A stretch of DNA of 64,000 nt from Cyanophora paradoxa CCMP329 (GCA_004431415.1 QPMI01000039.1:310001-374000); one strand, 5' to 3'; shown: positions 4,447-33,647, counted from the stretch's first letter. Program-made: numbers and translations. The notes: generated from the letters alone by a model not told the origin.

Positions 4447-4498
4447 ATTAAGGATCATTCACAGAATTTTTATATTTCTCTATTGTAAAAGAGAAATC

Positions 4499-5896: not shown

Positions 5897-5956
5897 ACCA
5901 TTATTAGTAAGATATCGTTATTTTTATCTATCTTTATTAAGAAGATCTACAACACC

Positions 5957-6739
5957 ATGGATGATGTCCCCGAATTTAACGCTGGGGAAATGATAAAACC
6001 ACCTTTTCGCGTCCTCGCAATCGGAAAATCAGCTACGGGCAAGTCAGAAGCGGTAAAGTATTGGTTAAAGCAACTTCACGATGCAAAAAAGATAGATGTG
6101 GTTCTCGTTGTAAGTGGGACATCATTCAATCATTTTTGGAGAGAAGTTGCAACGTTGGAACTCGGTAAATGGGATGCGCCTTACATCGCTAAACTTCTCG
6201 ATGAAAGACAAGAGAAAATAGAGAAAGGAGAACCCGTTAACCAATTGTGTGTAGTTCTCGATGATCTTATAGATAATGAGATAGTCGATCTAACCCGCGA
6301 CAAAATAATTGGCTCTCTTTACAGTCGTGGGCGCCATTCGAAAATTTCGATTATTTGCATAACTCAGAAACTGCGTAAGGTTTCTTCAACCATTCGCGTT
6401 AATTCGGATTATGCGATGTTTCTTAGCGCCGCCAATCGCAAAGAACTGGAAGCGATTGAAGAAGAATACAATATTATGCGGGATAAAGACGCTTTCTATA
6501 AGATGTTTGAGGAGTATGTACATTCCTATCAGTTTCTCATATGGTCATCCGCTGATTATTCGGTAAAGTATTATGTAGATAAAGCGGAACTGGTTAAAAA
6601 CTTTGGATTCCCACGGTTTCATCGGAAGCCCAAAAAGAAAGAAGATGAATTACAACCGCCACAGAAAGAAGAAGCGCCAAAAGAGATTAAAAGCGCTGTT
6701 CATACTAATAAGTTGATGCGATATAAGAGTGGACTTTAA
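5957..6739 (+). CDS. A32-like (FtsK-HerA) genome packaging ATPase, copy 1
   Basis: Walker A GKSATGKS, Walker B VVLDD, and SRGRHSKISIICITQ. Confidence 0.92.
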   Translation: MDDVPEFNAGEMIKPPFRVLAIGKSATGKSEAVKYWLKQLHDAKKIDVVLVVSGTSFNHFWREVATLELGKWDAPYIAKLLDERQEKIEKGEPVNQLCVVLDDLIDNEIVDLTRDKIIGSLYSRGRHSKISIICITQKLRKVSSTIRVNSDYAMFLSAANRKELEAIEEEYNIMRDKDAFYKMFEEYVHSYQFLIWSSADYSVKYYVDKAELVKNFGFPRFHRKPKKKEDELQPPQKEEAPKEIKSAVHTNKLMRYKSGL

Positions 6740-6767
6740 AATTATCTTCATTATTATTAAAGATACA

Positions 6768-7451
6768 ATGCCGCCGAAACGTAGAGGTGTTCCCGCTGGT
6801 GCTATTTCATATTCTGGCGGTGAAAGTTATGGATCTCTCAATACTACACCAATGAAATTTGACGGAGTCAATCAAGTAAAAGCAACTCAACAAGAAGAAG
6901 ACCCTTTAAATGCCGCTTATGAAGAAGCGCCCGGCGATAAAGCGCCTCAAACATCACAAAGTGATCAGTTGAACATCTCCCCCGAAGTCTCGAAGATGAA
7001 GGCGGTCGGTGAAGGTGCGCGTCGGATTATCGGTGCTGCCGATGATCGTGAACTTGGTCTACAAGATCTTGCACTTGTCCGCAAAGGGCAAGGTGTTTCG
7101 AAAGAATCGGACAAAGTTATTCAATCGATGGCGGGTGAAGTAACTTACAAGGTTGCACCAACTCAAAACATCCACCGAATCCCGAAGGCTCAATGGGACG
7201 AAATGACCGCTAAACTAAAAGACCTTGAAGCAAAGTCAAGCGCGCTTGAACAGTATGTAACAGAGAAGAAAGAACGCGCTAAAATTAAGGAGATGCTGCG
7301 TAAAGAAGTTTTCCGAATGGGAATAACTGGTGTTCCCGATAAACAATTCATTGGTAAGAAGGAGACTCAAATTGATGAGCAAGCGGTAGATGAAATGAAG
7401 ACAAAGACACAAAAGGAACCATTGAACCTGGCGCAACCAAAGCGGAAGTAG
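6768..7451 (+). CDS. Viral hypothetical protein, copy 1 (C-terminus shifted by a 1-bp indel relative to copy 2)
   Basis: Starts MPPKRRG; charged, coiled-coil-like C-terminal half. Confidence 0.65.
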   Translation: MPPKRRGVPAGAISYSGGESYGSLNTTPMKFDGVNQVKATQQEEDPLNAAYEEAPGDKAPQTSQSDQLNISPEVSKMKAVGEGARRIIGAADDRELGLQDLALVRKGQGVSKESDKVIQSMAGEVTYKVAPTQNIHRIPKAQWDEMTAKLKDLEAKSSALEQYVTEKKERAKIKEMLRKEVFRMGITGVPDKQFIGKKETQIDEQAVDEMKTKTQKEPLNLAQPKRK

Positions 7452-7524
7452 AGAAAGCCGTAGCACCAACAGTATACAAGCGGAGAGTTTGGTTATAAAT
7501 ATATATCTTTTAAAGAGGAAATCA

Positions 7525-7773
7525 ATGGACTTTTTACAAAAGATCATAGAGATGTTTAATCTCCATGTGGTAAGCAACTGTCACAGTGGATGCTGTGATA
7601 CAACAGTAGAAGTAGGTTTCTCAGATACCGAAGATAATGTGACGGAAGGTAGAGGATCCCGGAGACATTCGGTAGACTCCACCCATTCAGAACCGGCTTC
7701 AAATGGTCGCCGGTTTTCCGTAGATCAAAGCGATGATTTACGAAGACAAGCGTTTGAACATCGCGGTAATTAA
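7525..7773 (+). CDS. Small viral protein with a CHSGCC motif, copy 1
   Basis: 82 aa from ATG 7525 after an AT-rich leader. Confidence 0.55.
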   Translation: MDFLQKIIEMFNLHVVSNCHSGCCDTTVEVGFSDTEDNVTEGRGSRRHSVDSTHSEPASNGRRFSVDQSDDLRRQAFEHRGN

Positions 7774-7975
7774 AATATTTGTAATAAGTATCGAATAATG
7801 CTTGAAGAAGTCTACAATATCATCTTAGCGAAACGTCAGATTTATGCCGTTAAATCTGCAATTGAAGAACGTAGACAGTAGCTTGTCCGGTCGCCAAAAA
7901 TTGACAACCCAAAAAGGATTTAAAGGTACTGCGATATTACACACTGATAAAATATTTTCTCTGCTTAAAATAAGG

Positions 7976-8239
7976 ATGGCTGCGTTTGCCGATGATGTTA
8001 GCGTTGTTGAACTTGAATTTGATAGCGACGAATCCATGGACTCTCCAACTGAGAAAACTAAAACAAGCGCTGACGGTATCAGTTATAGAATCCGTAAGAT
8101 CATTGCTCAACGCAATAGATATAATGAGGATGCGGAATATCGTGAACTGAAAAAGAAGAAGGTATTAGAAGCGTATTACCGACGTAAAGCGGAGGAGGGA
8201 ACCAATATGGGAAAGCGTGGAAGACCGCGCAAGTATTGA
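7976..8239 (+). CDS. Small basic protein with a C-terminal AT-hook, copy 1
   Basis: Ends KRGRPRKY; preceded by the AAAATATTTTCTCTG motif. Confidence 0.65.
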   Translation: MAAFADDVSVVELEFDSDESMDSPTEKTKTSADGISYRIRKIIAQRNRYNEDAEYRELKKKKVLEAYYRRKAEEGTNMGKRGRPRKY

Positions 8240-8452
8240 ATAGAAAACCCCCAATTGCCGCTGGACATCATTTCTTATTTTTCGAGCGGCTTACCGATTA
8301 TATTCGGTAATTCCGTTACCATTTCTCGATTGCCCCGATTTAATCGATTTAATTCCCGATACGGAGGAAAAAGTATTTAAAGACAAGGCGCCAAAAAATG
8401 ACAAGGAAGAAAAATATTTTCTCAACCTATTGTAGAAAAGAGAAAGTTGAAA

Positions 8453-10160
8453 ATGACCCCATCGGACAAGCTCGGCAATCTGCGCAAGTTTACCCCTGGA
8501 AAGGTAACATCTGGTATGTTTCTTAAAAATGTCAAAGCATCTCGAGATGCTGATAATCTCATGGAACTGGATGATGATGTTATTATTGATCGTATCAATA
8601 AGAGTTTGAAAAAACGACTGCATCCGACATGGGCTGAATGGCTCCAACTTGATCAGGTGACACGGGTTTATCTTGATCTCGATCGGTTCGTGGATTTGAA
8701 GCCCAACCTTGAAGACAACTACAAGGAAGCGGAAGAAACCGTTAGAGTATTGCGTGAGAAATTACATGATCTGACCGGCGCTACTATTGCTGTATCTGTT
8801 CGTCATCGTCGTGTTCGCCTTCTAAAAGAAGATGTTGACAAATTCAAGGTCTCTGCCCATTTCGTTTTCACTGATCTATGTTGTCGCCATGAAGATATCC
8901 CAAAACTCTTTACTGAAATGGGTCTTGAGAAAAATGTAGAATTTGACAGTGGAGTTTACGGTTCACCACAGAATCTTGTGTGTCTTGGATGCTGCAAGGG
9001 GGAAAAAGTAGATTTGGAGAACACTCGGGCGCGCGATATTGATAAGAACGTTCTATTTACTAAGTTTGTCGATTGCAAGGATATGCATGATAGTGATTTC
9101 TTCGTTCAATTTACCGATTGCCCCACATTGCTGGTGGACAAGACAAACTTTCACGTCTTCTCAGTGAACAAAACAGAGAAGAAGGAAGCGGAGCCGAAGA
9201 AGGAAGCCGAACCAAAGAAGGAAGCGAAGCCGAAGAAGGAAACCAAGAAAACCACTAAAAACGAAGCTGCGAAAGAAGAGGTTGAAGATGAAGAGAAAGG
9301 TGGAGAAATTACATTTGATCTTATGTACGGAGTTGTAATGGGTCTGAGTGCTGAACGCGCCGATACCTACAAATCCTGGATTGATACAGGTATTGCAATC
9401 ATCAATGCTTGCGAAGACAACAAGATACCACGTAAACAGCAATTTGAGATATTCCATGACTTCTCACAAAAAAGTGAAAAGTTTGATTACGACGAATGCA
9501 ATGACAAGTTCATGAGTCTTTGCAAAGGCAAGAAGATGGTGGAAGGCAAACGGCTAACGTACGGTTCGCTGGTCTATTGGTTGAAAAAGGATGATATCGA
9601 ACTTTATAATGAGTTGTTTCCCACCAAGTATGCATTCTTGCCCGAAGATTCCGACGACATTGATTATAAGACCGCAAAGATCCCACCAATCGTTGAGGAT
9701 TACGCTACGCATCGCCTTTACTTCAATGCGAGAATGCACCACATTGAAATGCTGGGTATTGTGATGCATTGGGATGAACAACAGCTTGCGTGGATCCCGA
9801 AAGATAGCCAAAAACTCGGCTCCAAACACTATCCACACCTGATGCATAAAATCGTTCTGAACAAGGAACCGAGAAGGAAGTTGAGAAATGGATTCCCTCA
9901 TTTCCGGAATGGATCAAAGACCCACAGGCGACACGTTCCATGTACGTGGATTTCCTCCCGCCTCCGGCTAAACTGAGCGCCAAATGCAAATCTGTGTTTA
10001 ATCTGTATCCTGGCTTTAAGATTGATCATGAGGTAGATGAAATCAAGGAATCACTACCGGAAGATGTGACCGAAGATATGATTAAGCCGTTTCTCACACA
10101 TCTTCACCTGATGTCGGGAGAAGACGATAACACATACCAATACCTTCTTAAATGGTTCGC
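8453..10160 (+). pseudogene. Truncated primase-helicase (copy 1), cut before Walker A by the duplication junction
   Basis: Matches 14742..16450 apart from a 1-bp indel near 9865, then switches to penton-2 sequence at 10161. Confidence 0.85.
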
Positions 10161-10789
10161 ATCAATTCTATATTGCATTCGTGACAGATAAAGACCCAAA
10201 GGTATCCGGTGCCGAAGCGGGTAACCGTCGCGCTCGTGTTTTAGGTCTTGATGCCGGACGTAGAGGAAACCGATATATCAAATCGAGTGTTTACACTGCT
10301 CAAACAGATCCCGTATTTACAGGTGCAAATGTACATGGGATCATTTCAACTTTCCCAACTGAAACGTGTAAGGATAATGTAATATTTGTGAGAGTAAAAG
10401 AACTTGGTGACCTCATCCAATGCGCCGATGGTCTTCTCACTGGATATTTTCATAAGTTGACTGTTCAAGATAAAAATTTCGCTGAACACATAATATATAA
10501 TTCGACGGAAGCAAACCCGCTGTATAAATACTATAATAAGAAAATGTCACTATCGCAACTGTCGGTAGATATAGTGAATTCTCAGAATCAATTAATAGAT
10601 TTCGAAGGTCAGCCTGTGCATCTGACATTCGAGATCCGCTATGGCGATGAACCCGCCGGTGATCCCGTTTATGAATATTTCAAAATGAGAATGAGAGAAA
10701 CCCACCCTTCTATCCAAATATTGCCGGATTTGCGTAAATTAAGGATCATTCACAGAATTTTTATATTTCTCTATTGTAAAAGAGAAATC

Positions 10790-12187
10790 ATGGATGTCAC
10801 TACAACTCTTCAACGTCTTTCCCTCAAAGAGGCGCTAACCACGCCCGAAGAGGCAAAAGCGTTTTTCCTCGATAACTCGCTCATGCTCGGTCTGGAAGCG
10901 AAGACGAAACCCGTTCTCGTAACCGTTAGTCCATCAACAACCTACGATAACAACGTTGGTCAACGCGTTTCTTTCAAACTTCCCCGCTACAATTTCATCG
11001 GTAAAATCGAACTCGCTTTTGATCTTCCCGAACTAACCGCTTTCGAAGGCGATACTGACCTTGTGCGAAACGGTTACACTCGCCCCGTCGGTTCGCTTGT
11101 GCAACGCCTTGAAATCTCTTACGGTTCTTACACTTTCCACGTCCCGTCAGATTTCCTGGCGATTTTCCCGCTGGTCTACTATTCAGAGGATCAGTTGGCG
11201 AAAAAGAAGCGTTCTATGGGAATGCTCCACGGTATTCCCGCTCACGGAACCAACCGTAAAGGTGGCGCTTTCTTTGTTGAGATCCCGGTACCGTGGTTAA
11301 ACAGTTACCTACCACTCGGTGCGCTCTCGGGTGAGATGGTTGTTACTGTTTGGTTCAAAGAAGCTAACAAGGGTTACCTTGAAACTTCTTATGGCGGTCG
11401 CGCTCTTCCGGTTGTTGGTGCTGCTGCGGATCAAACCGAAAATGATGGTCTCGGCTCAGCTACTGGTGTAACTCTTGCTAATGTTGGTCAAAACATCACC
11501 ACTGGTACTATTACTGGGTTCGAAGTTGCTGGAACTATTCCACCAATGACCCATTACATCTCCATTAAGTCTCCTCGCCTTTACATGCATGCTATCAATG
11601 TTTCCGATGAACTGTTCGCTACGGTTATTGAGAAGGTCAAGACTACCGGTATGGCGATTCCATCACTCGACATTGGTTTCGTCGATGTCACCGGTCTTGC
11701 TGCGAAAGGTAACACTCAACCCAACCGAATTAACCTTAGCCAAATCTCCGGTCTGGTTTATGCTCTTCTTGTCTCTGTCCGTGATGATGGAGGTATCGAT
11801 TCTTCTAACGGTTCTCACAGCGTCCTTAAAACGCTTGCGAATGAGAAGGATATCACGATGACTTGTGAGATCAACGGACAGCGTCTTTATTCCACGGAGC
11901 CAATCCCGCTACTCAAAGGTGCGGAACTCATCGCCGATGCCTTCAAATGCTCGAACATGGACAAAGAAGCAAACCGTTACGTTCTTACAGGTCTACCTTT
12001 CTGCGCTGACGGTGAGAAGGCGATTCGCAATATCGCACAGAGTGGATATGTTGACCTTACGAACTCGTCGTCATCGTTCCTAACTCTGTATCTCCCTGCC
12101 GATCGCACAATTACTGTTAACGTTCGCGCTCTCATGCACAGTTTCATAATTTGTGACCGCGATGGAATTCGTAGAATTAATATGTAA
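10790..12187 (+). CDS. Major capsid protein, copy 2
   Basis: Same translation as 4499..5896. Confidence 0.85.
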   Translation: MDVTTTLQRLSLKEALTTPEEAKAFFLDNSLMLGLEAKTKPVLVTVSPSTTYDNNVGQRVSFKLPRYNFIGKIELAFDLPELTAFEGDTDLVRNGYTRPVGSLVQRLEISYGSYTFHVPSDFLAIFPLVYYSEDQLAKKKRSMGMLHGIPAHGTNRKGGAFFVEIPVPWLNSYLPLGALSGEMVVTVWFKEANKGYLETSYGGRALPVVGAAADQTENDGLGSATGVTLANVGQNITTGTITGFEVAGTIPPMTHYISIKSPRLYMHAINVSDELFATVIEKVKTTGMAIPSLDIGFVDVTGLAAKGNTQPNRINLSQISGLVYALLVSVRDDGGIDSSNGSHSVLKTLANEKDITMTCEINGQRLYSTEPIPLLKGAELIADAFKCSNMDKEANRYVLTGLPFCADGEKAIRNIAQSGYVDLTNSSSSFLTLYLPADRTITVNVRALMHSFIICDRDGIRRINM

Positions 12188-12247
12188 ACCATTATTAGTA
12201 AGATATCGTTATTTTTATCTATCTTTATTAAGAAGATCTACAACACC

Positions 12248-13029
12248 ATGGATGATGTCCCCGAATTTAACGCTGGGGAAATGATAAAACCACCTTTTCG
12301 CGTCCTCGCAATCGGAAAATCAGCTACGGGCAAGTCAGAAGCGGTAAAGTATTGGTTAAAGCAACTTCACGATGCAAAAAAGATAGATGTGGTTCTCGTT
12401 GTAAGTGGGACATCATTCAATCATTTTGGAGAGAAGTTGCAACGTTGGAACTCGGTAAATGGGATGCGCCTTACATCGCTAAACTTCTCGATGAAAGACA
12501 AGAGAAAATAGAGAAAGGAGAACCCGTTAACCAATTGTGTGTAGTTCTCGATGATCTTATAGATAATGAGATAGTCGATCTAACCCGCGACAAAATAATT
12601 GGCTCTCTTTACAGTCGTGGGCGCCATTCGAAAATTTCGATTATTTGCATAACTCAGAAACTGCGTAAGGTTTCTTCAACCATTCGCGTTAATTCGGATT
12701 ATGCGATGTTTCTTAGCGCCGCCAATCGCAAAGAACTGGAAGCGATTGAAGAAGAATACAATATTATGCGGGATAAAGACGCTTTCTATAAGATGTTTGA
12801 GGAGTATGTACATTCCTATCAGTTTCTCATATGGTCATCCGCTGATTATTCGGTAAAGTATTATGTAGATAAAGCGGAACTGGTTAAAAACTTTGGATTC
12901 CCACGGTTTCATCGGAAGCCCAAAAAGAAAGAAGATGAATTACAACCGCCACAGAAAGAAGAAGCGCCAAAAGAGATTAAAAGCGCTGTTCATACTAATA
13001 AGTTGATGCGATATAAGAGTGGACTTTAA
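12248..13029 (+). CDS. Packaging ATPase, copy 2 (apparent 1-bp frameshift in a T run at ~12424)
   Basis: Split into ORFs 12248..12511 and 12352..13029; CATTTTGG here versus CATTTTTGG in copy 1. Confidence 0.8.
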
Positions 13030-13057
13030 AATTATCTTCATTATTATTAAAGATACA

Positions 13058-13789
13058 ATGCCGCCGAAACGTAGAGGTGTTCCCGCTGGTGCTATTTCAT
13101 ATTCTGGCGGTGAAAGTTATGGATCTCTCAATACTACACCAATGAAATTTGACGGAGTCAATCAAGTAAAAGCAACTCAACAAGAAGAAGACCCTTTAAA
13201 TGCCGCTTATGAAGAAGCGCCCGGCGATAAAGCGCCTCAAACATCACAAAGTGATCAGTTGAACATCTCCCCCGAAGTCTCGAAGATGAAGGCGGTCGGT
13301 GAAGGTGCGCGTCGGATTATCGGTGCTGCCGATGATCGTGAACTTGGTCTACAAGATCTTGCACTTGTCCGCAAAGGGCAAGGTGTTTCGAAAGAATCGG
13401 ACAAAGTTATTCAATCGATGGCGGGTGAAGTAACTTACAAGGTTGCACCAACTCAAAACATCCACCGAATCCCGAAGGCTCAATGGGACGAAATGACCGC
13501 TAAACTAAAAGACCTTGAAGCAAAGTCAAGCGCGCTTGAACAGTATGTAACAGAGAAGAAAGAACGCGCTAAAATTAAGGAGATGCTGCGTAAAGAAGTT
13601 TTCCGAATGGGAATAACTGGTGTTCCCGATAAACAATTCATTGGTAAGAAGGAGACTCAAATTGATGAGCAAGCGGTAGATGAAATGAAGACAAAGACAC
13701 AAAAGGGAACCATTGAACCTGGCGCAACCAAAGCGGAAGTAGAGAAAGCCGTAGCACCAACAGTATACAAGCGGAGAGTTTGGTTATAA
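13058..13789 (+). CDS. Viral hypothetical protein, copy 2
   Basis: Duplicate of the 6768 gene with a longer C-terminus. Confidence 0.65.
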   Translation: MPPKRRGVPAGAISYSGGESYGSLNTTPMKFDGVNQVKATQQEEDPLNAAYEEAPGDKAPQTSQSDQLNISPEVSKMKAVGEGARRIIGAADDRELGLQDLALVRKGQGVSKESDKVIQSMAGEVTYKVAPTQNIHRIPKAQWDEMTAKLKDLEAKSSALEQYVTEKKERAKIKEMLRKEVFRMGITGVPDKQFIGKKETQIDEQAVDEMKTKTQKGTIEPGATKAEVEKAVAPTVYKRRVWL

Positions 13790-13815
13790 ATATATATCTT
13801 TTAAAGAGGAAATCA

Positions 13816-14064
13816 ATGGACTTTTTACAAAAGATCATAGAGATGTTTAATCTCCATGTGGTAAGCAACTGTCACAGTGGATGCTGTGATACAACAGTAG
13901 AAGTAGGTTTCTCAGATACCGAAGATAATGTGACGGAAGGTAGAGGATCCCGGAGACATTCGGTAGACTCCACCCATTCAGAACCGGCTTCAAATGGTCG
14001 CCGGTTTTCCGTAGATCAAAGCGATGATTTACGAAGACAAGCGTTTGAACATCGCGGTAATTAA
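13816..14064 (+). CDS. Small CHSGCC protein, copy 2
   Basis: Duplicate of 7525..7773. Confidence 0.55.
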   Translation: MDFLQKIIEMFNLHVVSNCHSGCCDTTVEVGFSDTEDNVTEGRGSRRHSVDSTHSEPASNGRRFSVDQSDDLRRQAFEHRGN

Positions 14065-14266
14065 AATATTTGTAATAAGTATCGAATAATGCTTGAAGAA
14101 GTCTACAATATCATCTTAGCGAAACGTCAGATTTATGCCGTTAAATCTGCAATTGAAGAACGTAGACAGTAGCTTGTCCGGTCGCCAAAAATTGACAACC
14201 CAAAAAGGATTTAAAGGTACTGCGATATTACACACTGATAAAATATTTTCTCTGCTTAAAATAAGG

Positions 14267-14530
14267 ATGGCTGCGTTTGCCGATGATGTTAGCGTTGTTG
14301 AACTTGAATTTGATAGCGACGAATCCATGGACTCTCCAACTGAGAAAACTAAAACAAGCGCTGACGGTATCAGTTATAGAATCCGTAAGATCATTGCTCA
14401 ACGCAATAGATATAATGAGGATGCGGAATATCGTGAACTGAAAAAGAAGAAGGTATTAGAAGCGTATTACCGACGTAAAGCGGAGGAGGGAACCAATATG
14501 GGAAAGCGTGGAAGACCGCGCAAGTATTGA
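14267..14530 (+). CDS. AT-hook protein, copy 2
   Basis: Duplicate of 7976..8239. Confidence 0.65.
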   Translation: MAAFADDVSVVELEFDSDESMDSPTEKTKTSADGISYRIRKIIAQRNRYNEDAEYRELKKKKVLEAYYRRKAEEGTNMGKRGRPRKY

Positions 14531-14741
14531 ATAGAAAACCCCAATTGCCGCTGGACATCATTTCTTATTTTTCGAGCGGCTTACCGATTATATTCGGTAA
14601 TTCCGTTACCATTTCTCGATTGCCCGATTTAATCGATTTAATTCCCGATACGGAGGAAAAAGTATTTAAAGACAAGGCGCCAAAAAATGACAAGGAAGAA
14701 AAATATTTTCTCAACCTATTGTAGAAAAGAGAAAGTTGAAA

Positions 14742-17387
14742 ATGACCCCATCGGACAAGCTCGGCAATCTGCGCAAGTTTACCCCTGGAAAGGTAACATC
14801 TGGTATGTTTCTTAAAAATGTCAAAGCATCTCGAGATGCTGATAATCTCATGGAACTGGATGATGATGTTATTATTGATCGTATCAATAAGAGTTTGAAA
14901 AAACGACTGCATCCGACATGGGCTGAATGGCTCCAACTTGATCAGGTGACACGGGTTTATCTTGATCTCGATCGGTTCGTGGATTTGAAGCCCAACCTTG
15001 AAGACAACTACAAGGAAGCGGAAGAAACCGTTAGAGTATTGCGTGAGAAATTACATGATCTGACCGGCGCTACTATTGCTGTATCTGTTCGTCATCGTCG
15101 TGTTCGCCTTCTAAAAGAAGATGTTGACAAATTCAAGGTCTCTGCCCATTTCGTTTTCACTGATCTATGTTGTCGCCATGAAGATATCCCAAAACTCTTT
15201 ACTGAAATGGGTCTTGAGAAAAATGTAGAATTTGACAGTGGAGTTTACGGTTCACCACAGAATCTTGTGTGTCTTGGATGCTGCAAGGGGGAAAAAGTAG
15301 ATTTGGAGAACACTCGGGCGCGCGATATTGATAAGAACGTTCTATTTACTAAGTTTGTCGATTGCAAGGATATGCATGATAGTGATTTCTTCGTTCAATT
15401 TACCGATTGCCCCACATTGCTGGTGGACAAGACAAACTTTCACGTCTTCTCAGTGAACAAAACAGAGAAGAAGGAAGCGGAGCCGAAGAAGGAAGCCGAA
15501 CCAAAGAAGGAAGCGAAGCCGAAGAAGGAAACCAAGAAAACCACTAAAAACGAAGCTGCGAAAGAAGAGGTTGAAGATGAAGAGAAAGGTGGAGAAATTA
15601 CATTTGATCTTATGTACGGAGTTGTAATGGGTCTGAGTGCTGAACGCGCCGATACCTACAAATCCTGGATTGATACAGGTATTGCAATCATCAATGCTTG
15701 CGAAGACAACAAGATACCACGTAAACAGCAATTTGAGATATTCCATGACTTCTCACAAAAAAGTGAAAAGTTTGATTACGACGAATGCAATGACAAGTTC
15801 ATGAGTCTTTGCAAAGGCAAGAAGATGGTGGAAGGCAAACGGCTAACGTACGGTTCGCTGGTCTATTGGTTGAAAAAGGATGATATCGAACTTTATAATG
15901 AGTTGTTTCCCACCAAGTATGCATTCTTGCCCGAAGATTCCGACGACATTGATTATAAGACCGCAAAGATCCCACCAATCGTTGAGGATTACGCTACGCA
16001 TCGCCTTTACTTCAATGCGAGAATGCACCACATTGAAATGCTGGGTATTGTGATGCATTGGGATGAACAACAGCTTGCGTGGATCCCGAAAGATAGCCAA
16101 AAACTCGGCTCCAAACACTATCCACACCTGATGCATAAAATCGTTCTGAACAAGGGAACCGAGAAGGAAGTTGAGAAATGGATTCCCTCATTTCCGGAAT
16201 GGATCAAAGACCCACAGGCGACACGTTCCATGTACGTGGATTTCCTCCCGCCTCCGGCTAAACTGAGCGCCAAATGCAAATCTGTGTTTAATCTGTATCC
16301 TGGCTTTAAGATTGATCATGAGGTAGATGAAATCAAGGAATCACTACCGGAAGATGTGACCGAAGATATGATTAAGCCGTTTCTCACACATCTTCACCTG
16401 ATGTCGGGAGAAGACGATAACACATACCAATACCTTCTTAAATGGTTCGCTCACATGATGCAAAAACCTGGTGAACTTAACGGAGTGTCAATTATCCTAA
16501 TTGGTGAACAAGGCACTGGTAAAAACGTGTTGTTTGATCTGTTCGAGAAAAGCATTCTGGGTGATGCTCTTTCATATTCGACCGGCAAACCGAAAGATGA
16601 CCTGTTTGGTCGCTTTGCTCACAATCGCGAAGACAAGATCTTAATAGTTGTTAATGAGGCATCGGGCAAAGACACATTCGAAAATAGCGATATTCTCAAA
16701 GACCTTGTCACTACTAAAAAAATTACTATTGAACACAAGGGAATAGATTCATACGACAAAAAGAATTTCGCGCGTATTGTGTTCACAAGTAACAACAGTG
16801 TCCCTGTGAAGATCGAAGCGGGTGACCGTCGATTTGTTGTAGTAGAAGTGAGTAAGCGATACTGTAAGAATGTGGAGTACTTCACACCTCTTCTGAAATG
16901 GTTGAATGATATTCGGAATATCCGCAACATCACCCACTTCTTGCGCACAAAGGTGGATTGTGATAATATCAACTGGCAGGAGGAGCGCCCCAAGACCAAT
17001 AAGTATTATCTGGTTCAGCAAATCTCCGCACCAATCATTCTGATGTTTGCAAAGTGGTTAATGGATACTGGGGAGATTACCGAAATCAAGTGTAAGTTAA
17101 GCGGTCTCGCTTCTACATGGGAGTTATTCAAGACCTTCATTACGGAAAATAAATATAAGAACGATTACAACAGTAAGCGGTTCTATACGGAGATGCGAGG
17201 CACTTCATACATTCTTGTGAAAACCGCAAATGGTAAACCATACTACCATTTCATCTGGAACGAAATGCTGGCGGAATTCCGTAAGTTGAAGCTAATTGAT
17301 GATGATTCGATTAAGGAAGAACCTAACCCCAAGATTCCCGCCAAGAAAGCTGGGACGAAATTCGAAGATTCCGACGTTGAAGCGTAA
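14742..17387 (+). CDS. AEP primase - PriCT-2 - D5-like SF3 helicase
   Basis: AEP motifs RVYLDLD, KVSAHFVF and FDSGVY; PriCT ERADTYKSWIDTGIAI; helicase GEQGTGKN, VVNE, VFTSN and DRRF; EPKKEA repeat linker. Confidence 0.92.
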   Translation: MTPSDKLGNLRKFTPGKVTSGMFLKNVKASRDADNLMELDDDVIIDRINKSLKKRLHPTWAEWLQLDQVTRVYLDLDRFVDLKPNLEDNYKEAEETVRVLREKLHDLTGATIAVSVRHRRVRLLKEDVDKFKVSAHFVFTDLCCRHEDIPKLFTEMGLEKNVEFDSGVYGSPQNLVCLGCCKGEKVDLENTRARDIDKNVLFTKFVDCKDMHDSDFFVQFTDCPTLLVDKTNFHVFSVNKTEKKEAEPKKEAEPKKEAKPKKETKKTTKNEAAKEEVEDEEKGGEITFDLMYGVVMGLSAERADTYKSWIDTGIAIINACEDNKIPRKQQFEIFHDFSQKSEKFDYDECNDKFMSLCKGKKMVEGKRLTYGSLVYWLKKDDIELYNELFPTKYAFLPEDSDDIDYKTAKIPPIVEDYATHRLYFNARMHHIEMLGIVMHWDEQQLAWIPKDSQKLGSKHYPHLMHKIVLNKGTEKEVEKWIPSFPEWIKDPQATRSMYVDFLPPPAKLSAKCKSVFNLYPGFKIDHEVDEIKESLPEDVTEDMIKPFLTHLHLMSGEDDNTYQYLLKWFAHMMQKPGELNGVSIILIGEQGTGKNVLFDLFEKSILGDALSYSTGKPKDDLFGRFAHNREDKILIVVNEASGKDTFENSDILKDLVTTKKITIEHKGIDSYDKKNFARIVFTSNNSVPVKIEAGDRRFVVVEVSKRYCKNVEYFTPLLKWLNDIRNIRNITHFLRTKVDCDNINWQEERPKTNKYYLVQQISAPIILMFAKWLMDTGEITEIKCKLSGLASTWELFKTFITENKYKNDYNSKRFYTEMRGTSYILVKTANGKPYYHFIWNEMLAEFRKLKLIDDDSIKEEPNPKIPAKKAGTKFEDSDVEA

Positions 17388-17392
17388 CAAAT

Positions 17393-17614
17393 CACACCCC
17401 ACCCTACACCACACCGTTACCATAACCTCCTTGTAATTCCTTATTTTTATAAACTATTTTGTAGATTGAATTGTATGTGAATATAGTAAATAATAGAGAA
17501 GGTGGGAAGGTGGGGTGTGGTGGGGTCAAATTTTAAGAAAAGTTTGGGACGCTTCAAAATTCTAAGGAATTCTAAAAACATGCCCCACCTGACCCCACCC
17601 GCCCACCCTATCGA
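17393..17614 (+). repeat. Internal diverged copy of the ~230-bp TIR C-tract/G-tract module
   Basis: CACCCCACCCTACACC...CGTTACCATAA...GGTGGGGTGTGGTGGGGTCAAATTT...AAAAACATGCCCCACC.GACCCCACC, colinear with 33671-33905 and 34071-34300. Confidence 0.9.
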
Positions 17615-17657: not shown

Positions 17658-20600
17658 ATGCCCCGCCAAACCAACAGACTCATTAAAGAAAAGAAGAATG
17701 AAATACTTGGACTGTTAGGAACTCTCTTTGTTACGGGTGAGATCACCGAAGCGGAATTTGATAGAGAAGCCGCCATCTTAGATAGACGACCACGATTAGC
17801 ACAACTCAGAGATATTACAAATGACCTTTACGATCGCATGCAAAGAATGGAGGAGTTTATGGATGAAGGACAGAGATTAGGAGCAATTCAACCGGACATC
17901 GAAGATGGTGAAGCAATGAATCAAGCGTATTCATGGCTAACCTATCGCGCCCGAAACGAAGTAGTGGTTGATGCTATCGAATTCCTTGAAAGAATCGCAC
18001 CAAGTCTACCTCAACGCATTAAAACCCGCTTGGATCAACTGAATGCGGTTAAAGTACGTCTGACATTCGTATGTAAGTTTACCAAAGTAGGAAATCCACG
18101 AATCTACATCACCAAATACATTTACAGCGATTATTTCGTAATTACCCGATCCCGCAACATTAACACAGAAGTTCGCAAAGCGTTACAGAAAATGCAAGAG
18201 GAGATGACACAAGTAGATAGTTACCGCTTGGAACGTATCCAAATTCTAAGAGGTGTTATTATGTCTTATGCACCGGTTGGTGGTTGTTATTTCACAACTC
18301 CCGAATGGATCGCATCCAAAAAGGCAACAGTGAACGTTAAGAATATCGACGGGCAAGACTGTTTTAAGTACGCAATTTTGGCGTACCTACACAGAAAGGA
18401 TATTAACAAACACAAGAGCAACGAACCGAGCCAATATCGCCGATGGTTAAATGAACTCAATTTCGATGGTATTCAGTTTCCCGTTGCATGTGATGCTGAG
18501 GTAATCGATCGATTCGAAGAACTAAACCCCGATTTATCCATTAACATTTACGGAGCTGATAACTCCAAAGAGTGTTTCTTTCCGCTGCATCAATCAAGCA
18601 ACCCAAGGAGAAAGACCAAGATTAACCTTTTACTCATCGAAAACACCGAAGACGATCGGGGACACTACATTACTATCATGTCTTTTAGTCGTCTTCTGAA
18701 AACTACGTTTGATAAAGCATGTGATGGTCGCATTTATTACTGTGAAACCTGCCTGTCGCGTTTCAGAACTCAGGAGAAATTAGACCTACATGTTGAAGCA
18801 AACCGCTGCATTGATTGGAGGGAGAGCAAAGGTAAATGCCCAAAGCCGGGAAGCGTAATTGAATTCGGTCTGCAACATCTACGTAAAAGCGTTTGGCTAC
18901 CTGTAATCTGTTACGTTAAAGTCGAAGATCATTCGGTTGCTATTGATGCTCAGAGGAGTAAAAGAGAGATTAAAGCGGTTTCATTGAGAGTGGTAATGGG
19001 AGAAGAAGTGAGATCATACCAATTTGAGGGAGCTGATCCGCTTGGTTCTCTCTTTGCTGCTCTACAAGATATCAGACCCGAAATAGTTGAAACGCTGTTT
19101 AGAAATATTCCGATGCATCCACTCACAGATGATCAGAAGGCGGAGTACAAGATAACAAAATACTGCTATATTTGCTCTCAGAGATTCACCCATGAAAACT
19201 TCCCGGTTCGGGATCATTGTCACCAATCCGGCGATTTTATCGGAAAGGCATGCCGAAACTGTAACCTCCACAGGCGAATTTCAAAGCAAACCAAAGTAGC
19301 TATTGTGGTAGATCAAATGGATGAATGCGGACATGGAATATTCCGCAAAATCGCCCAACAAGACGATAAACTACGTGTTGAGATTCTGAGCAAGAATTTC
19401 GATCAATACCTATCGCTTCAATGGGGTATGTGGAAGTTCATCGATGCTTCCCATTTTATGGATTTCCAATCTGTGGATGTGGAGGATTTAATGAGGAAAT
19501 TCGAAGCATTCCGCAAATTGGCGTTTTCTCAATACGGATTGGATCCCGCTCATTATGTGAGCGCACCGGGTCTATCTTGGGATGCAATGCTAAAACACAC
19601 GAAGGTAAAGATTGGACTTATTGATGATGTAGAGAAATACGAATTTGTTGAGAGAGCCATTCGCGGTGGATTTGCTACCATGCCCACACGATACGCAAAG
19701 GTAGAGACCCCCGAAGATCATATAGTATTGTTGGACGCAAATAATCTTTATGGGTATGCACTCAGTCAACCACTACCAATCGGAGATTATCGATGGGAAG
19801 ACATCACAGAGGCACTTAAAGAGGTAGAGGGACGAAGCGCATTTATTGAAGTTGACCTTGAATACCCTACAACTCTTGAAGATCATTACGATTTCCCACT
19901 GATTGTGAATAAAGAAGTGATCACCAATGAGATGCTTGGTGATTATCAAAATAAACTATTAGATCTGACGGGCGAAAAGATCAGCAAAGACCCAAAACTT
20001 ACAGCGACATTTACGCCCAAGAATAAATACGTGATTGCCCGACCTCTTCTTAATTACATCGTTAAGAAGGGTGTGATTGTAAAAACAATACATAGAGTTC
20101 TCTCATTTGCTACTTCCCCATTCATGAAATCATATATTGGTCTGAATACTCTACTCCGCCACGAATCTACTAACCATTTCGAAAGCGACTTCTTTAAACT
20201 CATGAACAATGCAATTTATGGTAAATGCTTGGAGTCTTGCAGGGGTCGCTCAACTGTCAAGATCGCTAACAGTGAGAAACTGTGTAAGAAATACGCAGCA
20301 AGCCCACTTATCAAAGCAACCAATGTATTAAACGAAAACGCTGTTGCCTTTGAGATGTATTCGAAGCATGTTAACTTAGATAAACCCGTTGCAATTGGCG
20401 CTTTCGTGTTGGATTTCGCGAAACTACATAATTATGAGTTCTTCTACGATGTGGTAAGAAAGAAGTGGGAAACAGCTAAACTACTGTTTCACGATACCGA
20501 TTCGTTCTGTCTTTTCTTGAAAACGAATAATCTCAATGAAGATATGAAAGAGATAGGTGAGCATCTCGATAGGAGCAATTACGATAAATCCCATCCTCTT

Positions 20601-20939
20601 GTGAGTATCAGGAACCGCATGGTTCCCGGTAAATATAAAAATGAGTTCCCAAACGCAAAGATCGTGGAGTATGTGGGTCTGAGGTCGAAACTCTATGCTT
20701 TCAGAACTGAGACCAACGAAAAAGTGAAGATGTCGGGGACTTCCTCGAAAGAAGTACACTTCGACGATTTTAAGAAATGCCTATTGGAAGGCATCATAAA
20801 AACAGTATCAGTAACAAACAAGCGAAGGCAAGACCACAACTTATATGACTTGGAGAGCAGAAGGGTCGCTCTAAACCAACTCGATAGCAAACGGAAGATA
20901 TCAGCCGACGGCATTCACAGCATTCCATTTGGTCTTTAA
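17658..20939 (+). CDS. Protein-primed family B DNA polymerase (Polinton type) with vOTU-like, Zn-finger and endonuclease-VII-like inserts and a degenerate exonuclease
   Basis: LDANNLYG, KLMNNAIYGK, HDTDS, GLRSKLY, YGLDPAHYVSAPGLSWDAMLK, VRDHCHQSG and NVKNIDGQDCF...GHY. Confidence 0.95.
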   Translation: MPRQTNRLIKEKKNEILGLLGTLFVTGEITEAEFDREAAILDRRPRLAQLRDITNDLYDRMQRMEEFMDEGQRLGAIQPDIEDGEAMNQAYSWLTYRARNEVVVDAIEFLERIAPSLPQRIKTRLDQLNAVKVRLTFVCKFTKVGNPRIYITKYIYSDYFVITRSRNINTEVRKALQKMQEEMTQVDSYRLERIQILRGVIMSYAPVGGCYFTTPEWIASKKATVNVKNIDGQDCFKYAILAYLHRKDINKHKSNEPSQYRRWLNELNFDGIQFPVACDAEVIDRFEELNPDLSINIYGADNSKECFFPLHQSSNPRRKTKINLLLIENTEDDRGHYITIMSFSRLLKTTFDKACDGRIYYCETCLSRFRTQEKLDLHVEANRCIDWRESKGKCPKPGSVIEFGLQHLRKSVWLPVICYVKVEDHSVAIDAQRSKREIKAVSLRVVMGEEVRSYQFEGADPLGSLFAALQDIRPEIVETLFRNIPMHPLTDDQKAEYKITKYCYICSQRFTHENFPVRDHCHQSGDFIGKACRNCNLHRRISKQTKVAIVVDQMDECGHGIFRKIAQQDDKLRVEILSKNFDQYLSLQWGMWKFIDASHFMDFQSVDVEDLMRKFEAFRKLAFSQYGLDPAHYVSAPGLSWDAMLKHTKVKIGLIDDVEKYEFVERAIRGGFATMPTRYAKVETPEDHIVLLDANNLYGYALSQPLPIGDYRWEDITEALKEVEGRSAFIEVDLEYPTTLEDHYDFPLIVNKEVITNEMLGDYQNKLLDLTGEKISKDPKLTATFTPKNKYVIARPLLNYIVKKGVIVKTIHRVLSFATSPFMKSYIGLNTLLRHESTNHFESDFFKLMNNAIYGKCLESCRGRSTVKIANSEKLCKKYAASPLIKATNVLNENAVAFEMYSKHVNLDKPVAIGAFVLDFAKLHNYEFFYDVVRKKWETAKLLFHDTDSFCLFLKTNNLNEDMKEIGEHLDRSNYDKSHPLVSIRNRMVPGKYKNEFPNAKIVEYVGLRSKLYAFRTETNEKVKMSGTSSKEVHFDDFKKCLLEGIIKTVSVTNKRRQDHNLYDLESRRVALNQLDSKRKISADGIHSIPFGL

Positions 20940-21124: not shown

Positions 21125-22423
21125 ATGCCCTCAGCACAGATTGGTTTAAGACCTACTCCAAAAATTGTAAAGAAAAGTTTAAAAGATGATCAAGGTTATA
21201 CACTACCTATAACCATTCCTGTCGAAGAGAAGAACACACGAATCTTAAAGAAGTCTGAGATGGTTAAAGAACTGATCCCGAAAGCATTACCTACTGAGAC
21301 TGTAACGAAAGAATCAAAGATCGCGAAGAAATTCTATGATCCGCGCACCGGTTATAAAGGTTTTGGTGCAATGAGAAAAGAACTTCCAGAGGAAAACTAC
21401 AAGAAGATGAAAGAATGGTATGATAAACAGGAAGTCGTTCAGATTAACGCGCCAACCCTTTCAAGAAAGAGAGACCCAATGATACCAATTAGGCAACCTC
21501 TCGATACCTACGTAATCGATCTTCTGTTTTTTCCGGCTTATAAGAAACAAAACGACGGTTACGATACATTTATGTCCGCGATGGAATCAACGCTTAGAAC
21601 GGGTTTTATCATTCCAATGAGAGATAAGAGCGCAATTACGGCTCTTTCAGCGTTTCAGCAACTACAACAAAGAGTTCCGCGACCAATTGTACGCGTTCAA
21701 AGCGATAGTGGAAGCGAATTTACAAATACAATGTTTACCTCATACCTTGCTAAAAAGTTCATCGATCATCAGATTAGCGATGTCGCAGATCATCGAAGCC
21801 AAGGTAGAATAGAAGCGTTTAACAAGCAGATCAAACGCCTTATTACGAACTATTGTATAGCAAACAACACCGCGCGATTCTTCGATGTATTGGGTGACAT
21901 AGAGTATAATTATAATCATACTGTCCATTCAGCGACTAAAAGAAAACCCGCAGAAACCACAGATGAGCATTATAGAGAAATTATAGGTTTAGAAGATGAA
22001 AAGTTTAAGAAGTCGATGGCTTACTTAGATGGTATCAAACAGGGTATGTTTGTGAGAGTGAGAATAGAAAAGAATCCGTTCGCTAAACAGGGTGTCAATT
22101 GGTCGCGAATCGTCTATACTGTTGAAGGTCGTGAAGGTTTCAAGTTCAGATTACGAAATCCAAATGGTGAAATTGTCGAAGGGAGGTTTGCTTTCCACGA
22201 ACTGTTACCGATTACAGGTGTTGAATACCACGAAGTACCAACAGTGGATGCACTCAAACAAGCAAAAGAAGAAGCACGGGTTGATTCGGCGATTCGTAAG
22301 GAAGGCATCGAAAAAGCGGATGATGTCCCAGAAGAACCGCTTTTACAAGCAAGATTAAAGAAAAAAAACAAAGTAACAAGAGAATTAAAAAAACTTACAA
22401 TAAATGGAACTGAAAAGCTCTAA
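21125..22423 (+). CDS. Retroviral-like (RVE, DDE) integrase
   Basis: YVIDLL, VQSDSGSEF, GRIEAFNKQIK and YNHTVHSATKRKP. No chromodomain is evident. Confidence 0.93.
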   Translation: MPSAQIGLRPTPKIVKKSLKDDQGYTLPITIPVEEKNTRILKKSEMVKELIPKALPTETVTKESKIAKKFYDPRTGYKGFGAMRKELPEENYKKMKEWYDKQEVVQINAPTLSRKRDPMIPIRQPLDTYVIDLLFFPAYKKQNDGYDTFMSAMESTLRTGFIIPMRDKSAITALSAFQQLQQRVPRPIVRVQSDSGSEFTNTMFTSYLAKKFIDHQISDVADHRSQGRIEAFNKQIKRLITNYCIANNTARFFDVLGDIEYNYNHTVHSATKRKPAETTDEHYREIIGLEDEKFKKSMAYLDGIKQGMFVRVRIEKNPFAKQGVNWSRIVYTVEGREGFKFRLRNPNGEIVEGRFAFHELLPITGVEYHEVPTVDALKQAKEEARVDSAIRKEGIEKADDVPEEPLLQARLKKKNKVTRELKKLTINGTEKL

Positions 22424-30232: not shown

Positions 30233-31075
30233 ATGGGCGAATATAATCGAGTCCAATTACCAGTTTACGCATTGGGTGCGCCCGCGGTTCACTTTCGACA
30301 ACACGAGGTTGCCGACGAAATTCGCGGTGTGGAATCGACGGAACGCGCTAACTCCGCGAATGCATTTGATAAAAACAGCATGATACGTGTTAAAGAACTA
30401 CGCGCCGACAAGAATTCGGGAGTGGTTAAAACGACTCAACTTCTTGTAACAAATGCGAATTTTAACGCGGGAATCGGGCAACCTGACGCATGGGGTGTGG
30501 ATATTAGAACGTTAGATTTTGACGGAGAACGTGCCGCCGCTGTTGTCCGATCGGGAGGCGCTGTTATTGGCGGTGGTTGTCGTGTGTCGGGTATGCTTGC
30601 ATCCTCCGTTGCTGTTACCGATATTCCCGATACTCTACCTGAACATGCGGACAATCCGCAACGTATCCGTATGTACACTCCATGTGGAGACTATCCTTAC
30701 GTGTTTGGAATGGTCAGAGTTGGGGTAGATAACGTAAATGCAACACAACCCGATGGAATTATGGGAAATTGGTTATTACCAAATATTGCTATTCCTAAAT
30801 CTATTGAGTCTATATGTCGTTCACAAAATGGTATTATCGGACCGGCTTATACTTTCTTTGTTCAGGGAATCGGACGCGGTAGAGGTTGGGTGGAATTCGA
30901 CAACCAGAACCCCGCTACGTTTAATGTTTGGACAACAGAAGTAGGAGGTTACGATATTCTCATTTTCGGAATGCGAACAGATCCAGCCGCTGTGGCGGCT
31001 ACACGTGGTCTCAATCCCGATAACAACCTAAATAACTTCTACGATGATCCGTTCCCAGGTGATCCCACACCATAA
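30233..31075 (+). CDS. Fibre/spike-like protein, paralogue A
   Basis: Shares ESTE.A, KELR.DKN.G.VKTT.LLVTNANFNA and RSGGA.IG.G.RV.G with the next ORF. Confidence 0.65.
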   Translation: MGEYNRVQLPVYALGAPAVHFRQHEVADEIRGVESTERANSANAFDKNSMIRVKELRADKNSGVVKTTQLLVTNANFNAGIGQPDAWGVDIRTLDFDGERAAAVVRSGGAVIGGGCRVSGMLASSVAVTDIPDTLPEHADNPQRIRMYTPCGDYPYVFGMVRVGVDNVNATQPDGIMGNWLLPNIAIPKSIESICRSQNGIIGPAYTFFVQGIGRGRGWVEFDNQNPATFNVWTTEVGGYDILIFGMRTDPAAVAATRGLNPDNNLNNFYDDPFPGDPTP

Positions 31076-31094: not shown

Positions 31095-31940
31095 ATGGCG
31101 GCACCCGCTCCACCCGAGCGTATCTTAACAGCGCAACTTTCATTAGCCGCGCCGGCAAATCACGTATTACAACATGCTGTTATCGATAATGTCGATGGTC
31201 TCGAATCTACCGAACTTGCACCTACTCTTAATACTTTTGGTGATACGCATAAATTGCGACTGAAAGAGTTACGATGTGACAAAAATAACGGAATTGTGAA
31301 AACTACGAAACTTCTTGTTACAAATGCAAACTTTAACGCTTTTTATGGAGATCCCGATAGTTATAATGATGATAACAAGGTTACTAACTTTGCTTATGAA
31401 TCGAGAAACGGAGCAATTAAATGTAGATCGGGTGGCGCTTATATTGGGGACGGACTAAGGGTCGGTGGTATCATCGGAGCGCCTCTAATCGTAAATGACC
31501 AACCAAACCCCGATGATGAAAACACACGTATTAGGACGTATTGCCCAGGTATGAATGAACCTTACCTAATTAAGATTTATACAATCGTTATTAGTTTACA
31601 GACAGCGGTAGCCGATGTTTTAGAACCGTTAGGAAATCATTATAGATATAGAGACACGATACCAGAGGACATTTACGCATTATGTAGAAGAACCGACGGA
31701 GCAAGACCACGCCTAACGATACATATTATCCCCATAGATAATTTCGGTCAAGCGTTTCACTCAATACCTCTTTTAGATACACAAGATAACCAATTTATAA
31801 TAAGAGCTACACAACTTGGAAATTATCGAGTCATTATGTATGCCGAAAGAAACGACGCAATCGCAACAGCTAACCGATTCGGTCAATATCTTAATACCAA
31901 TCTATACAATCCCGTCGGCGGTAGCGATCCACAACCATAA
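31095..31940 (+). CDS. Fibre/spike-like protein, paralogue B
   Basis: Paralogue of 30233..31075 with a diverged C-terminal half ending ...YAERND. Confidence 0.65.
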   Translation: MAAPAPPERILTAQLSLAAPANHVLQHAVIDNVDGLESTELAPTLNTFGDTHKLRLKELRCDKNNGIVKTTKLLVTNANFNAFYGDPDSYNDDNKVTNFAYESRNGAIKCRSGGAYIGDGLRVGGIIGAPLIVNDQPNPDDENTRIRTYCPGMNEPYLIKIYTIVISLQTAVADVLEPLGNHYRYRDTIPEDIYALCRRTDGARPRLTIHIIPIDNFGQAFHSIPLLDTQDNQFIIRATQLGNYRVIMYAERNDAIATANRFGQYLNTNLYNPVGGSDPQP

Positions 31941-31960: not shown

Positions 31961-32233
31961 ATGGATGAAAAAACAAGAAAGTTTATAGATACCGCTATGT
32001 CAGTCCATGGTAAGGATAAATTTGATTATAGCGACACTGTTTATAAGAAAGCGCAAGAAAAGGTATCTGTTAGATGCCTACAATGTAATAAAGTCTTTCA
32101 GACGTACGGATTTAATCACATTAAGGGGTCAGGATGTAGACAGTGTTCTAAGAAACACTCACATGCATACAGAAAAAAGACTACATGGGGAATAGTAATA
32201 GAAGAGAAGCCAATTATGTTGTACTTTGATTGA
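31961..32233 (+). CDS. DUF723-like zinc-ribbon protein (no nuclease domain)
   Basis: KFIDTAMSVHGKDKFDYSDTVY...CLQC...NHIKGSGCRQC. Confidence 0.7.
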   Translation: MDEKTRKFIDTAMSVHGKDKFDYSDTVYKKAQEKVSVRCLQCNKVFQTYGFNHIKGSGCRQCSKKHSHAYRKKTTWGIVIEEKPIMLYFD

Positions 32234-33248: not shown

Positions 33249-33647
33249 ATGAATCATCGCGGCTTCCATGTAATGTTAGATTACAAGTTCAACCATCCAT
33301 TAATGATAGGATTGGACAACTTAGAGACCACAACGAAGTGGTTAATGCAATTTTTTCAATCTATTATTCAAGAACAAGGTATCAGAGTAGTACACAAGCA
33401 CTGCGAGATTTTCGATGGTGGTCTTTCACCTCCGGGTTTTGCTATGGTTCTTCTCCTTGATGAGAGTCATTTAACCGCTCATTGTTACTCAGATCAGGGA
33501 ATGTTAGCAATCGATATATTCACTTGTGGTACGGAAGCGGAGCGTAAGACATCAGTAATAAAGGAGATGATAGAAGAGAGGGTAACGTGTATGTTTAGCG
33601 GTTTGGAGAGAGCGGAGAAGCATAGAGTAGCGCGGTTTCCGAGTTAA
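33249..33647 (+). CDS. speD: Prokaryotic-type (class 1) pyruvoyl-dependent S-adenosylmethionine decarboxylase proenzyme
   Basis: GFHVMLD...GFAMVLLLDESHLTAHCYSDQGMLAIDIFTCG, with the ES self-cleavage site and the DxFTCG signature. Confidence 0.87.
   Translation: MNHRGFHVMLDYKFNHPLMIGLDNLETTTKWLMQFFQSIIQEQGIRVVHKHCEIFDGGLSPPGFAMVLLLDESHLTAHCYSDQGMLAIDIFTCGTEAERKTSVIKEMIEERVTCMFSGLERAEKHRVARFPS

Follow-up and report, generated by a model that had tools for sequence, protein, structure and literature searches.

An integrated virus in the Cyanophora paradoxa genome

The window we analysed is a 64,000-nucleotide stretch of the Cyanophora paradoxa CCMP329 genome (GCA_004431415.1, QPMI01000039.1:310001-374000), and all positions given here are counted from its first letter. 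It holds an integrated Polinton-like element (737-34573, to which no strand is assigned) of 33.8 kb, which shrinks to about 27.5 kb once an internal tandem duplication is discounted. The boundaries are drawn from terminal inverted repeats (TIRs) of 1044 nt that are 100% identical, from a 6-bp target duplication, CGGCGC, flanking the element on both sides, and from a contrast in GC content, 40% in the element vs 64% in the host flank. With TIRs, target duplication, an rve integrase and an A32 ATPase all present, the element is an intact integrated virus of the Polinton/PLV type.

Its genes include an A32-type packaging ATPase (5957-6739, plus strand; Pox_A32, 1.1e-10), of which a second, frameshifted copy lies at 12352-13029, and an rve-type integrase (21125-22423, plus strand) whose Pfam rve match of 0.0057 is under the curated cut-off and whose PHROG match is to a transposase (1e-11). 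An ORF at 4430-5896, for which Pfam and PHROG searches returned no match, resembles a double jelly-roll major capsid protein and is a candidate for one. There is also a patatin-F5/8 protein, a tail fibre with an S74 chaperone and an adenine methyltransferase; F5/8 domains, some fused to patatin, are reported from glaucophyte PLVs (PMC12220804). Two ORFs of ~280 aa that follow the tail fibre (30233-31075 and 31095-31940) look paralogous and have no Pfam or PHROG match. The methyltransferase (32214-33029) adjoins an S-adenosylmethionine decarboxylase-like ORF (33249-33647; Pfam, 6e-13) that extends into the right TIR. The tandem duplication spans 6.3 kb (3860-10164 and 10152-16453), and its copies, 99.86% identical, differ mostly by one-base indels; it is either an assembly artefact or very recent.

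Both ends of the element carry a 71-nt palindrome with a 28-bp perfect stem and no strand of its own. The left one (737-807) has a z of -13.9 vs shuffles; the right one (34503-34573) has a z of -12.8, and folding back of its 3' end could supply a primer. A different, imperfect palindrome of ~125 nt, G-rich/C-rich, has two copies in each TIR (1003-1256 and 1401-1655; 33655-33909 and 34054-34307) and one between the primase-helicase and polymerase genes (17487-17614), with z of -4 to -8. Its copies are ~80% alike, and it is a possible origin or promoter element.

The two genes on either side of that last copy are the subject of this article. The primase-helicase (14736-17387, plus strand) lies directly upstream of the polymerase gene and combines an AEP-like N-terminus, PriCT-2 and an SF3 helicase (Pfam PriCT_2, 2.6e-12, and DUF5906, 4.3e-21; PHROG DNA primase, 9e-25; PDB 6k9e, 2e-15). 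A homologue search with the N-terminal region gave none at E 0.001, so that the AEP-like label comes from the motifs YLDLD, SAHF and DSGVY only. Another copy of the gene, at 8447-9976 inside the tandem duplication, is truncated.

A protein-primed polymerase with a stripped exonuclease

The polymerase, a protein-primed family B enzyme (pPolB) that we call P0001, is encoded at 17658-20939 on the plus strand in a frame that stays open over 1093 aa. Its domains run in the order terminal protein (TP), vOTU, zinc finger, dead exonuclease, polymerase. We take it to belong to the DHCH-insert subtype 'Polinton-1 / Beta', and we compared it column by column with 141 relatives in one alignment (A2). Its closest companion in what follows is P0002, a 1083-aa protein from Logan that is 46% identical over the full length. 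In both proteins a three-helix extension of ~73 aa (17658-17876 in P0001) precedes the TP domain.

The TP domain (17895-18275, plus strand) was placed by structural match and alignment and has the LF/PAD fold. The vOTU-like protease after it (18276-18692, plus strand) is labelled by position, following PMC11161782. Its Cys and His, each present in 139 of 141 relatives, are both there in P0001 (C235 and H336), along with 18 of the 19 conserved columns of the region. At the other end of the protein, the polymerase domain (19536-20936, plus strand) matches phi29 polymerase structurally and has intact motifs: A (D693), B (K847, N851, G855) and C (D946-T947-D948), starting at 19728, 20196 and 20490, and KxY (K1011, Y1013). 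TPR1 and TPR2 are 47 and 57 aa long, against medians of 48 and 57 in the relatives, and the thumb is of near-normal length. The preliminary description of this DNA had said that the DHCH insert, YGLDPAHY and motifs A/B/C were preserved in an open frame of 1093 aa, and all are where they should be, with RDHCH at 19209 and YGLDPAHY at 19533. Conservation is another matter. P0001 retains 64 of 80 conserved polymerase columns (relatives' median 75), a count as low in only 3 of 141 relatives; judged by these columns the domain is more eroded than usual, which also fits a gene heading for replacement and counts against a replicase of a fully ordinary kind.

Between these parts lies the exonuclease remnant (residues 405-626; 18870-19535, plus strand), in which core strands and helices are kept (model pLDDT ~85-97, and alignments) and which contains the DHCH zinc insert (19110-19292, plus strand). 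The damage falls on the catalytic residues. ExoI reads PVICYVKVE (residues 415-423; 18900-18926, plus strand), with Lys421 (18918-18920) where 140 of 141 relatives have Asp, and with Glu423 kept. In the ExoII remnant (19302-19337, plus strand), which includes VDQMDECG at 19308-19331, the His and Asn are replaced and the catalytic Asp, present in 139 of 141 relatives, falls in a one-residue gap. At the third site, the deletion junction (19437-19490, plus strand; FIDASHFMDFQSVD at 19437-19478), the protein has lost the KGxYPY motif, a helical insert and the ExoIII Tyr and keeps the invariant D596; all 141 relatives have the KGxYPY Lys and Tyr. From FIDxxxF to YGLDP, P0001 has 32 aa, compared with a median of 125 in relatives (range 122-177, n=88) and of 128 among 149 cluster representatives, so the deletion amounts to ~93-96 aa. 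The ExoI and ExoII readings of the preliminary description, and its collapse of about 100 aa, thus stand at the places it gave them. D607 is a possible ExoIII Asp, matched in two alignments and gapped in another; P0002 has Asn there, as does a diverged copy from the same host (read by eye from a loose end at 19469). Altogether P0001 keeps 16 of 39 strongly conserved exonuclease columns. In the relatives the median is 37 and the lowest count 23; none of the 141 is as low.

What remains is nonetheless a folded domain. A model of the pPolB made with a 60-row alignment (pLDDT 89.5, pTM 0.83) shows the strand and helix of ExoII, the zinc insert and a hairpin still in place in the remnant, along with strands one to three and the final helix. 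Among solved structures, phi29 polymerase matches the model best (Z 20.5, rmsd 3.2, 486 aligned), with model residues 413-1074 lying on 4-575; this register of 413 to 4, if gapless, puts Asp12 on K421 and Glu14 on E423. A thumb like that of phi29 closes the model near residue 1074. Residues 87-206 match the LF/PAD of Y-family polymerases (Z 9.8, rmsd 2.5, 106 aligned), the fold assigned to the terminal protein in PMC11161782. A phmmer search of the pPolB against PDB sequences gave 0 matches, and a single-sequence fold of residues 395-681 was discarded at a pLDDT of 42.7.

In phi29 the exonuclease active site contains the Kx2h Lys and the ExoIII Tyr in addition to four carboxylates (PMC4974454, section 12). 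Going by the alignments, P0001 is without two of the phi29-type acids, the Tyr and the Lys, and we infer that it has no exonuclease activity. The preliminary description said that the exonuclease appears destroyed. For the catalytic residues that is largely right, Glu423 being kept; for the structure it is not, as the fold survives in the model. The domain is catalytically stripped, its structure not destroyed.

Shared by other copies and under selection

A lesion seen in one gene copy might be trivial: a decayed single copy, or a product of sequencing or assembly. The one-base indels between the duplication copies, typical of long-read error, are the sort of thing that would encourage such a reading. 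It is refuted by the junction itself, which turns up again in P0002 and, independently, in short-read contigs. In addition, the reading frame is open, the TIRs are 100% identical and synonymous variants are in strong excess. We give it next to no chance. P0002 has the 32-aa junction too, and at the four acid positions it has Q, K, a gap and N, with no carboxylate left.

The gene is present in 20 runs of one organism from 18 studies, possibly of a single strain, and we examined 8. If the runs are perhaps one strain, the copies in them are paralogous and not from independent hosts. Four of the examined runs have 391-618 records each over the pPolB gene, and in the other four (X2, X8, X15 and X20) the 122-144 records over 18860-19600 have no indel and no joint. 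At 19469 the junction is bridged with 0 gaps by records with 8-33 differences, and contigs 80-100% alike do the same in all four runs. One more diverged record has a loose end of 222-254 nt before 19530, and the exonuclease region is unreadable there. The deletion is therefore not unique to one copy, a point on which the first reading of this locus had hung: the same junction is found in P0002 and in diverged copies.

Within the exonuclease region 31 of the 40 best-supported variant sites (163 in all) are synonymous where a proportion of 0.26 is expected (p ~1e-11), giving a crude pN/pS of ~0.10 when every site is counted as one change. For the whole gene, 23 of the 40 best-supported sites (of 625) are synonymous against the same 0.26. 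This synonymous excess among diverged copies is the reason for regarding the remnant as under purifying selection and, as far as such counts can tell, the dead exonuclease domain is being kept. The idea of a maintained polymerase without proofreading has thus fared well: the deletion is shared, P0001 and P0002 have no alternative acid in common, and selection on the remnant is purifying. The lesion is real and belongs to the lineage.

How rare is exonuclease loss?

Our survey took in 149 other representatives of 50% clusters, from the best 150 of 2104 clusters at E 1e-30. By column, 143 of the 149 have D-E-D-D. Several of the rest we set aside: P0131, a sponge gene model with gaps that look like false introns; P0188, an alignment slip with the motif intact; and P0263 and P0259, where the region is missing. 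A lone ExoII change from Asp to Ala was seen in P0253, a single sequence with no deletion and the rest of the domain intact; it is possibly an earlier stage of exonuclease loss.

One other protein is stripped. P0161 (with its Logan cluster mate P0272) reads A, E, E, P across the four acid positions, and its junction of 44 aa has borders unlike those of P0001. In trees built without the exonuclease, P0001 and P0002 are joined at 100 and P0161 lies elsewhere. Forcing the three together gives a p-AU of 0.072 (36 rows, LG+G4) or 0.044 (30 rows, mixture model), so that a separate origin of the P0161 loss is likely but only borderline on these trees. The three exonuclease-dead proteins rank 15, 7 and 11 of 151 in root-to-tip distance, a weak hint toward a mutator. 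We also considered the thumb Lys of the KG motif (column 1026, 20733-20735), which is K in 134 of 141 relatives and Ser, Ser and Gly in the three, as a mark of exonuclease death (cf. PMC1475753). It was rejected: two such columns lie outside the exonuclease, compared with ~1.1 expected by chance.

Searches for further cases returned little. IMG/VR yielded 0 loci with P0161 as the query and, with P0002, 1 locus, whose ExoII and KGxYPY are intact. The primase-helicase as query gave 0 further loci, and the 5 loci from JGI metagenomes were fragments or frameshifted, with no further exonuclease-dead locus having gene context. DNA patterns shaped like the junctions had 1 and 7 matches with no pPolB among them, phage records gave no match, nothing came from the protein atlas for P0001 or P0002, and a profile search with alignment A1 returned 1 protein.

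The priming loop and the terminal hairpins

The exonuclease is not the only part of P0001 to have changed. According to PMC11161782, the Ser or Tyr that links to DNA sits in the alpha2-beta4 loop of the TP domain, next to a Gly or Pro. In the corresponding loop of P0001 (18207-18224, TQVDSY), D187 stands where 125 of 141 relatives have Ser, in the sole TP column conserved at >=85%, and P0002 has Asp there as well. We infer that this column holds the linking residue. The loop is 14 aa long, four shorter than the 18 aa seen in 113 of 144 rows, and has neither Gly nor Pro, at least one of which is found in 129 of 135 relatives. After D187 come Ser188 and Tyr189, common to P0001 and P0002. P0161 keeps its Ser loop despite the loss of its exonuclease.

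It is conceivable, though we lean against it, that protein priming has been abandoned as well, the enzyme extending either the fold-back hairpins at the 3' ends or primers that the AEP-like domain lays down, while the helicase unwinds. Such a scheme agrees with our preferred account about proofreading and differs about priming. Ser replaced by Asp in both P0001 and P0002, and a short loop without Gly or Pro, speak for it. So do the 71-nt palindromes at both ends: the Halocafeteria preprint (bioRxiv 10.64898/2026.07.28.741278) proposes hairpin priming for terminal palindromes, which it finds mainly with non-pPolB replicases. Against this, the link could be made by Ser188 or Tyr189, which P0001 and P0002 have both conserved, the TP fold and the vOTU Cys and His are retained, and P0161 is exonuclease-dead yet keeps its Ser. 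Among 14 loci compared, whose ends are mostly missing, the one palindrome was an internal one in L001, and we give this no weight. Since Ser188/Tyr189 are shared by the two proteins and the vOTU dyad is intact, we regard shifted protein priming as slightly more likely than its close rival of hairpin or primase priming.

A proposed replicase that leaves unwinding to a helicase

The reading we favour, at a probability of roughly 0.6, is that the polymerase of this lineage is an active, non-proofreading replicase in which the exonuclease remnant is kept and for which the primase-helicase is predicted to do the unwinding. Two strands of background bear on it. Mutants in the metal ligands of the phi29 exonuclease are defective in strand displacement, and the exonuclease domain contributes to the template tunnel (PMC6351526). 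Exonuclease loss accompanies helicase gain in mavirus and in pPolB-S1H, for which compensation of fidelity has been suggested (PMC11161782). In our scheme the helicase would have been gained first, relaxing the need for an intact exonuclease site. The SF3 helicase would take over the unwinding that an exonuclease-dead enzyme does poorly, and the site could then degenerate, with the fold retained as a scaffold. The remnant may form one wall of the template tunnel, which in phi29 is made by exonuclease domain, TPR2, palm and fingers, and priming would still go through the terminal protein, by way of the shifted Ser188 or Tyr189. Of eight partial IMG/VR loci, 9-17 kb long and intact in their exonuclease motifs, 0 of 8 had a Pfam match to a primase or SF3 helicase, in a scan of 68 of the 81 ORFs that left out antisense overlaps, one polymerase and L010 (ExoI was not seen in L014); the association with the helicase is thus one locus against eight partial ones and is not significant.

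Could the work be divided differently? The AEP-helicase or a host polymerase might carry out bulk synthesis while the pPolB merely initiates or finishes the ends, or is itself being replaced. The low-tail conservation of the polymerase domain is in keeping with this, as is the view of the Halocafeteria preprint that paired replication genes are transient replacement states. We think it improbable. The arrangement has persisted since P0001 and P0002 split, at 46% identity, with catalytic motifs, TPR2 length and thumb kept; the gene-wide synonymous excess runs the same way; and the priming loop, which an enzyme devoted to initiation should guard, is the very part that has changed. Nor is there support for the suggestion, in the preliminary description, that the enzyme serves chiefly in terminal priming or end repair: TPR1, TPR2 and thumb are near normal length, the whole phi29 fold is kept, and the priming loop itself is altered. 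Much less probable again is a nuclease site rebuilt from acids that still lie near the pocket (E423, D552, D555, E556 and D607), using E423, D552, D555 or E556, and D607, so that some editing survives. These candidates do sit in or near the old motifs, and position 556 is acidic in a diverged copy too (read by eye from a loose end at 19324). P0002, however, is without all four canonical acids and shares none of the candidates of P0001; D607 is replaced by Asn in P0002 and a diverged copy, Lys421 occupies the position of the ExoI Asp, and the KGxYPY Lys and ExoIII Tyr are gone. The argument against a rebuilt metal site is drawn solely from the alignments.

A bolder proposal joins the two altered parts, namely that a protein-primed polymerase is converting to a hairpin- or primase-primed, helicase-dependent, non-proofreading replicase, and that the exonuclease segment has also been cut independently in a second lineage. 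On this view the enzyme would have lost its priming serine along with the editing site, while terminal hairpins and a primase-helicase were gained by the virus. We offer it tentatively, as a combination that the odds do not favour.

Relation to known polymerases

The active non-proofreading replicase we propose has known parallels. Like P0001, the mavirus-type pPolB (in the order TP, vOTU, remnant exonuclease, palm) has lost its exonuclease, kept TP and vOTU, and travels with a separate SF3 helicase (DUF5906) and an rve integrase (PMC11161782 and PMC13215967), and for mavirus, too, it has been proposed that unwinding was handed to the helicase. The likeness does not look like one of descent: the nearest sequences to P0001 are DHCH-insert pPolBs with a full exonuclease, another polymerase lineage, and in a BFVD search of viral folds mavirus ranks 43rd (TMq 0.22). 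P0001 also differs in keeping the exonuclease core fold and both Asp residues of motif C, and its helicase carries PriCT-2 and an AEP-like domain.

With the canonical Polinton/adintovirus DHCH pPolBs, P0001 shares domain order, 28-34% identity, the vOTU dyad, the zinc finger and zinc insert, motifs A/B/C and TPR1/TPR2. It differs from them in that 143 of 149 representatives (among the best 150 of 2104 clusters) keep the four carboxylates and the ~95-aa segment, and most retain the Ser/Gly loop of the TP domain. pPolB-S1H, the Tlr1-like helicases of PLVs and transpovirons, likewise joins a protein-primed palm without a working exonuclease to a helicase. It lacks the exonuclease domain altogether, however, and has an SF1 helicase fused to it (PMC11161782), whereas P0001 has a folded remnant and a separate SF3 helicase; there is no helicase Pfam match within its pPolB and no SF1 helicase after the palm. 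Fusion of a helicase to a polymerase with a complete exonuclease is described in PMC12721341. The Halocafeteria virophages and PLVs resemble our element in their terminal palindromes, inside TIRs and beside the target duplication, and some have a pPolB with a D5 primase-helicase; they differ in that palindromes there go mainly with non-pPolB replicases.

The word exonuclease is absent from the text of PMC8502044, PMC12220804 and the Halocafeteria preprint. Across the literature we covered, exonuclease loss is described for mavirus-like and S1H-fused polymerases only. The pairing of exonuclease loss with a helicase is thus already described, for mavirus and pPolB-S1H (PMC11161782), which the preliminary description does not mention; the case of P0001 looks new and separate, and is an intermediate form of a known evolutionary move.

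What the intermediate may tell us

Mavirus and pPolB-S1H are end states, with little exonuclease domain. P0001 is an intermediate that has lost catalytic residues while its fold is kept and selected. It has some 140 intact relatives nearby, and among the exonuclease-dead proteins there is probably a second, independent case. Two questions become testable. Does the trade-off between exonuclease and helicase concern strand displacement and not fidelity? And can a 27-kb DNA virus persist without proofreading? The altered priming loop, together with the terminal hairpins, makes this element a test case for hairpin priming in polinton-like viruses. Should conversion and an independent cut both prove true, they would mark a repeatable route from phi29-style to mavirus-style replication.
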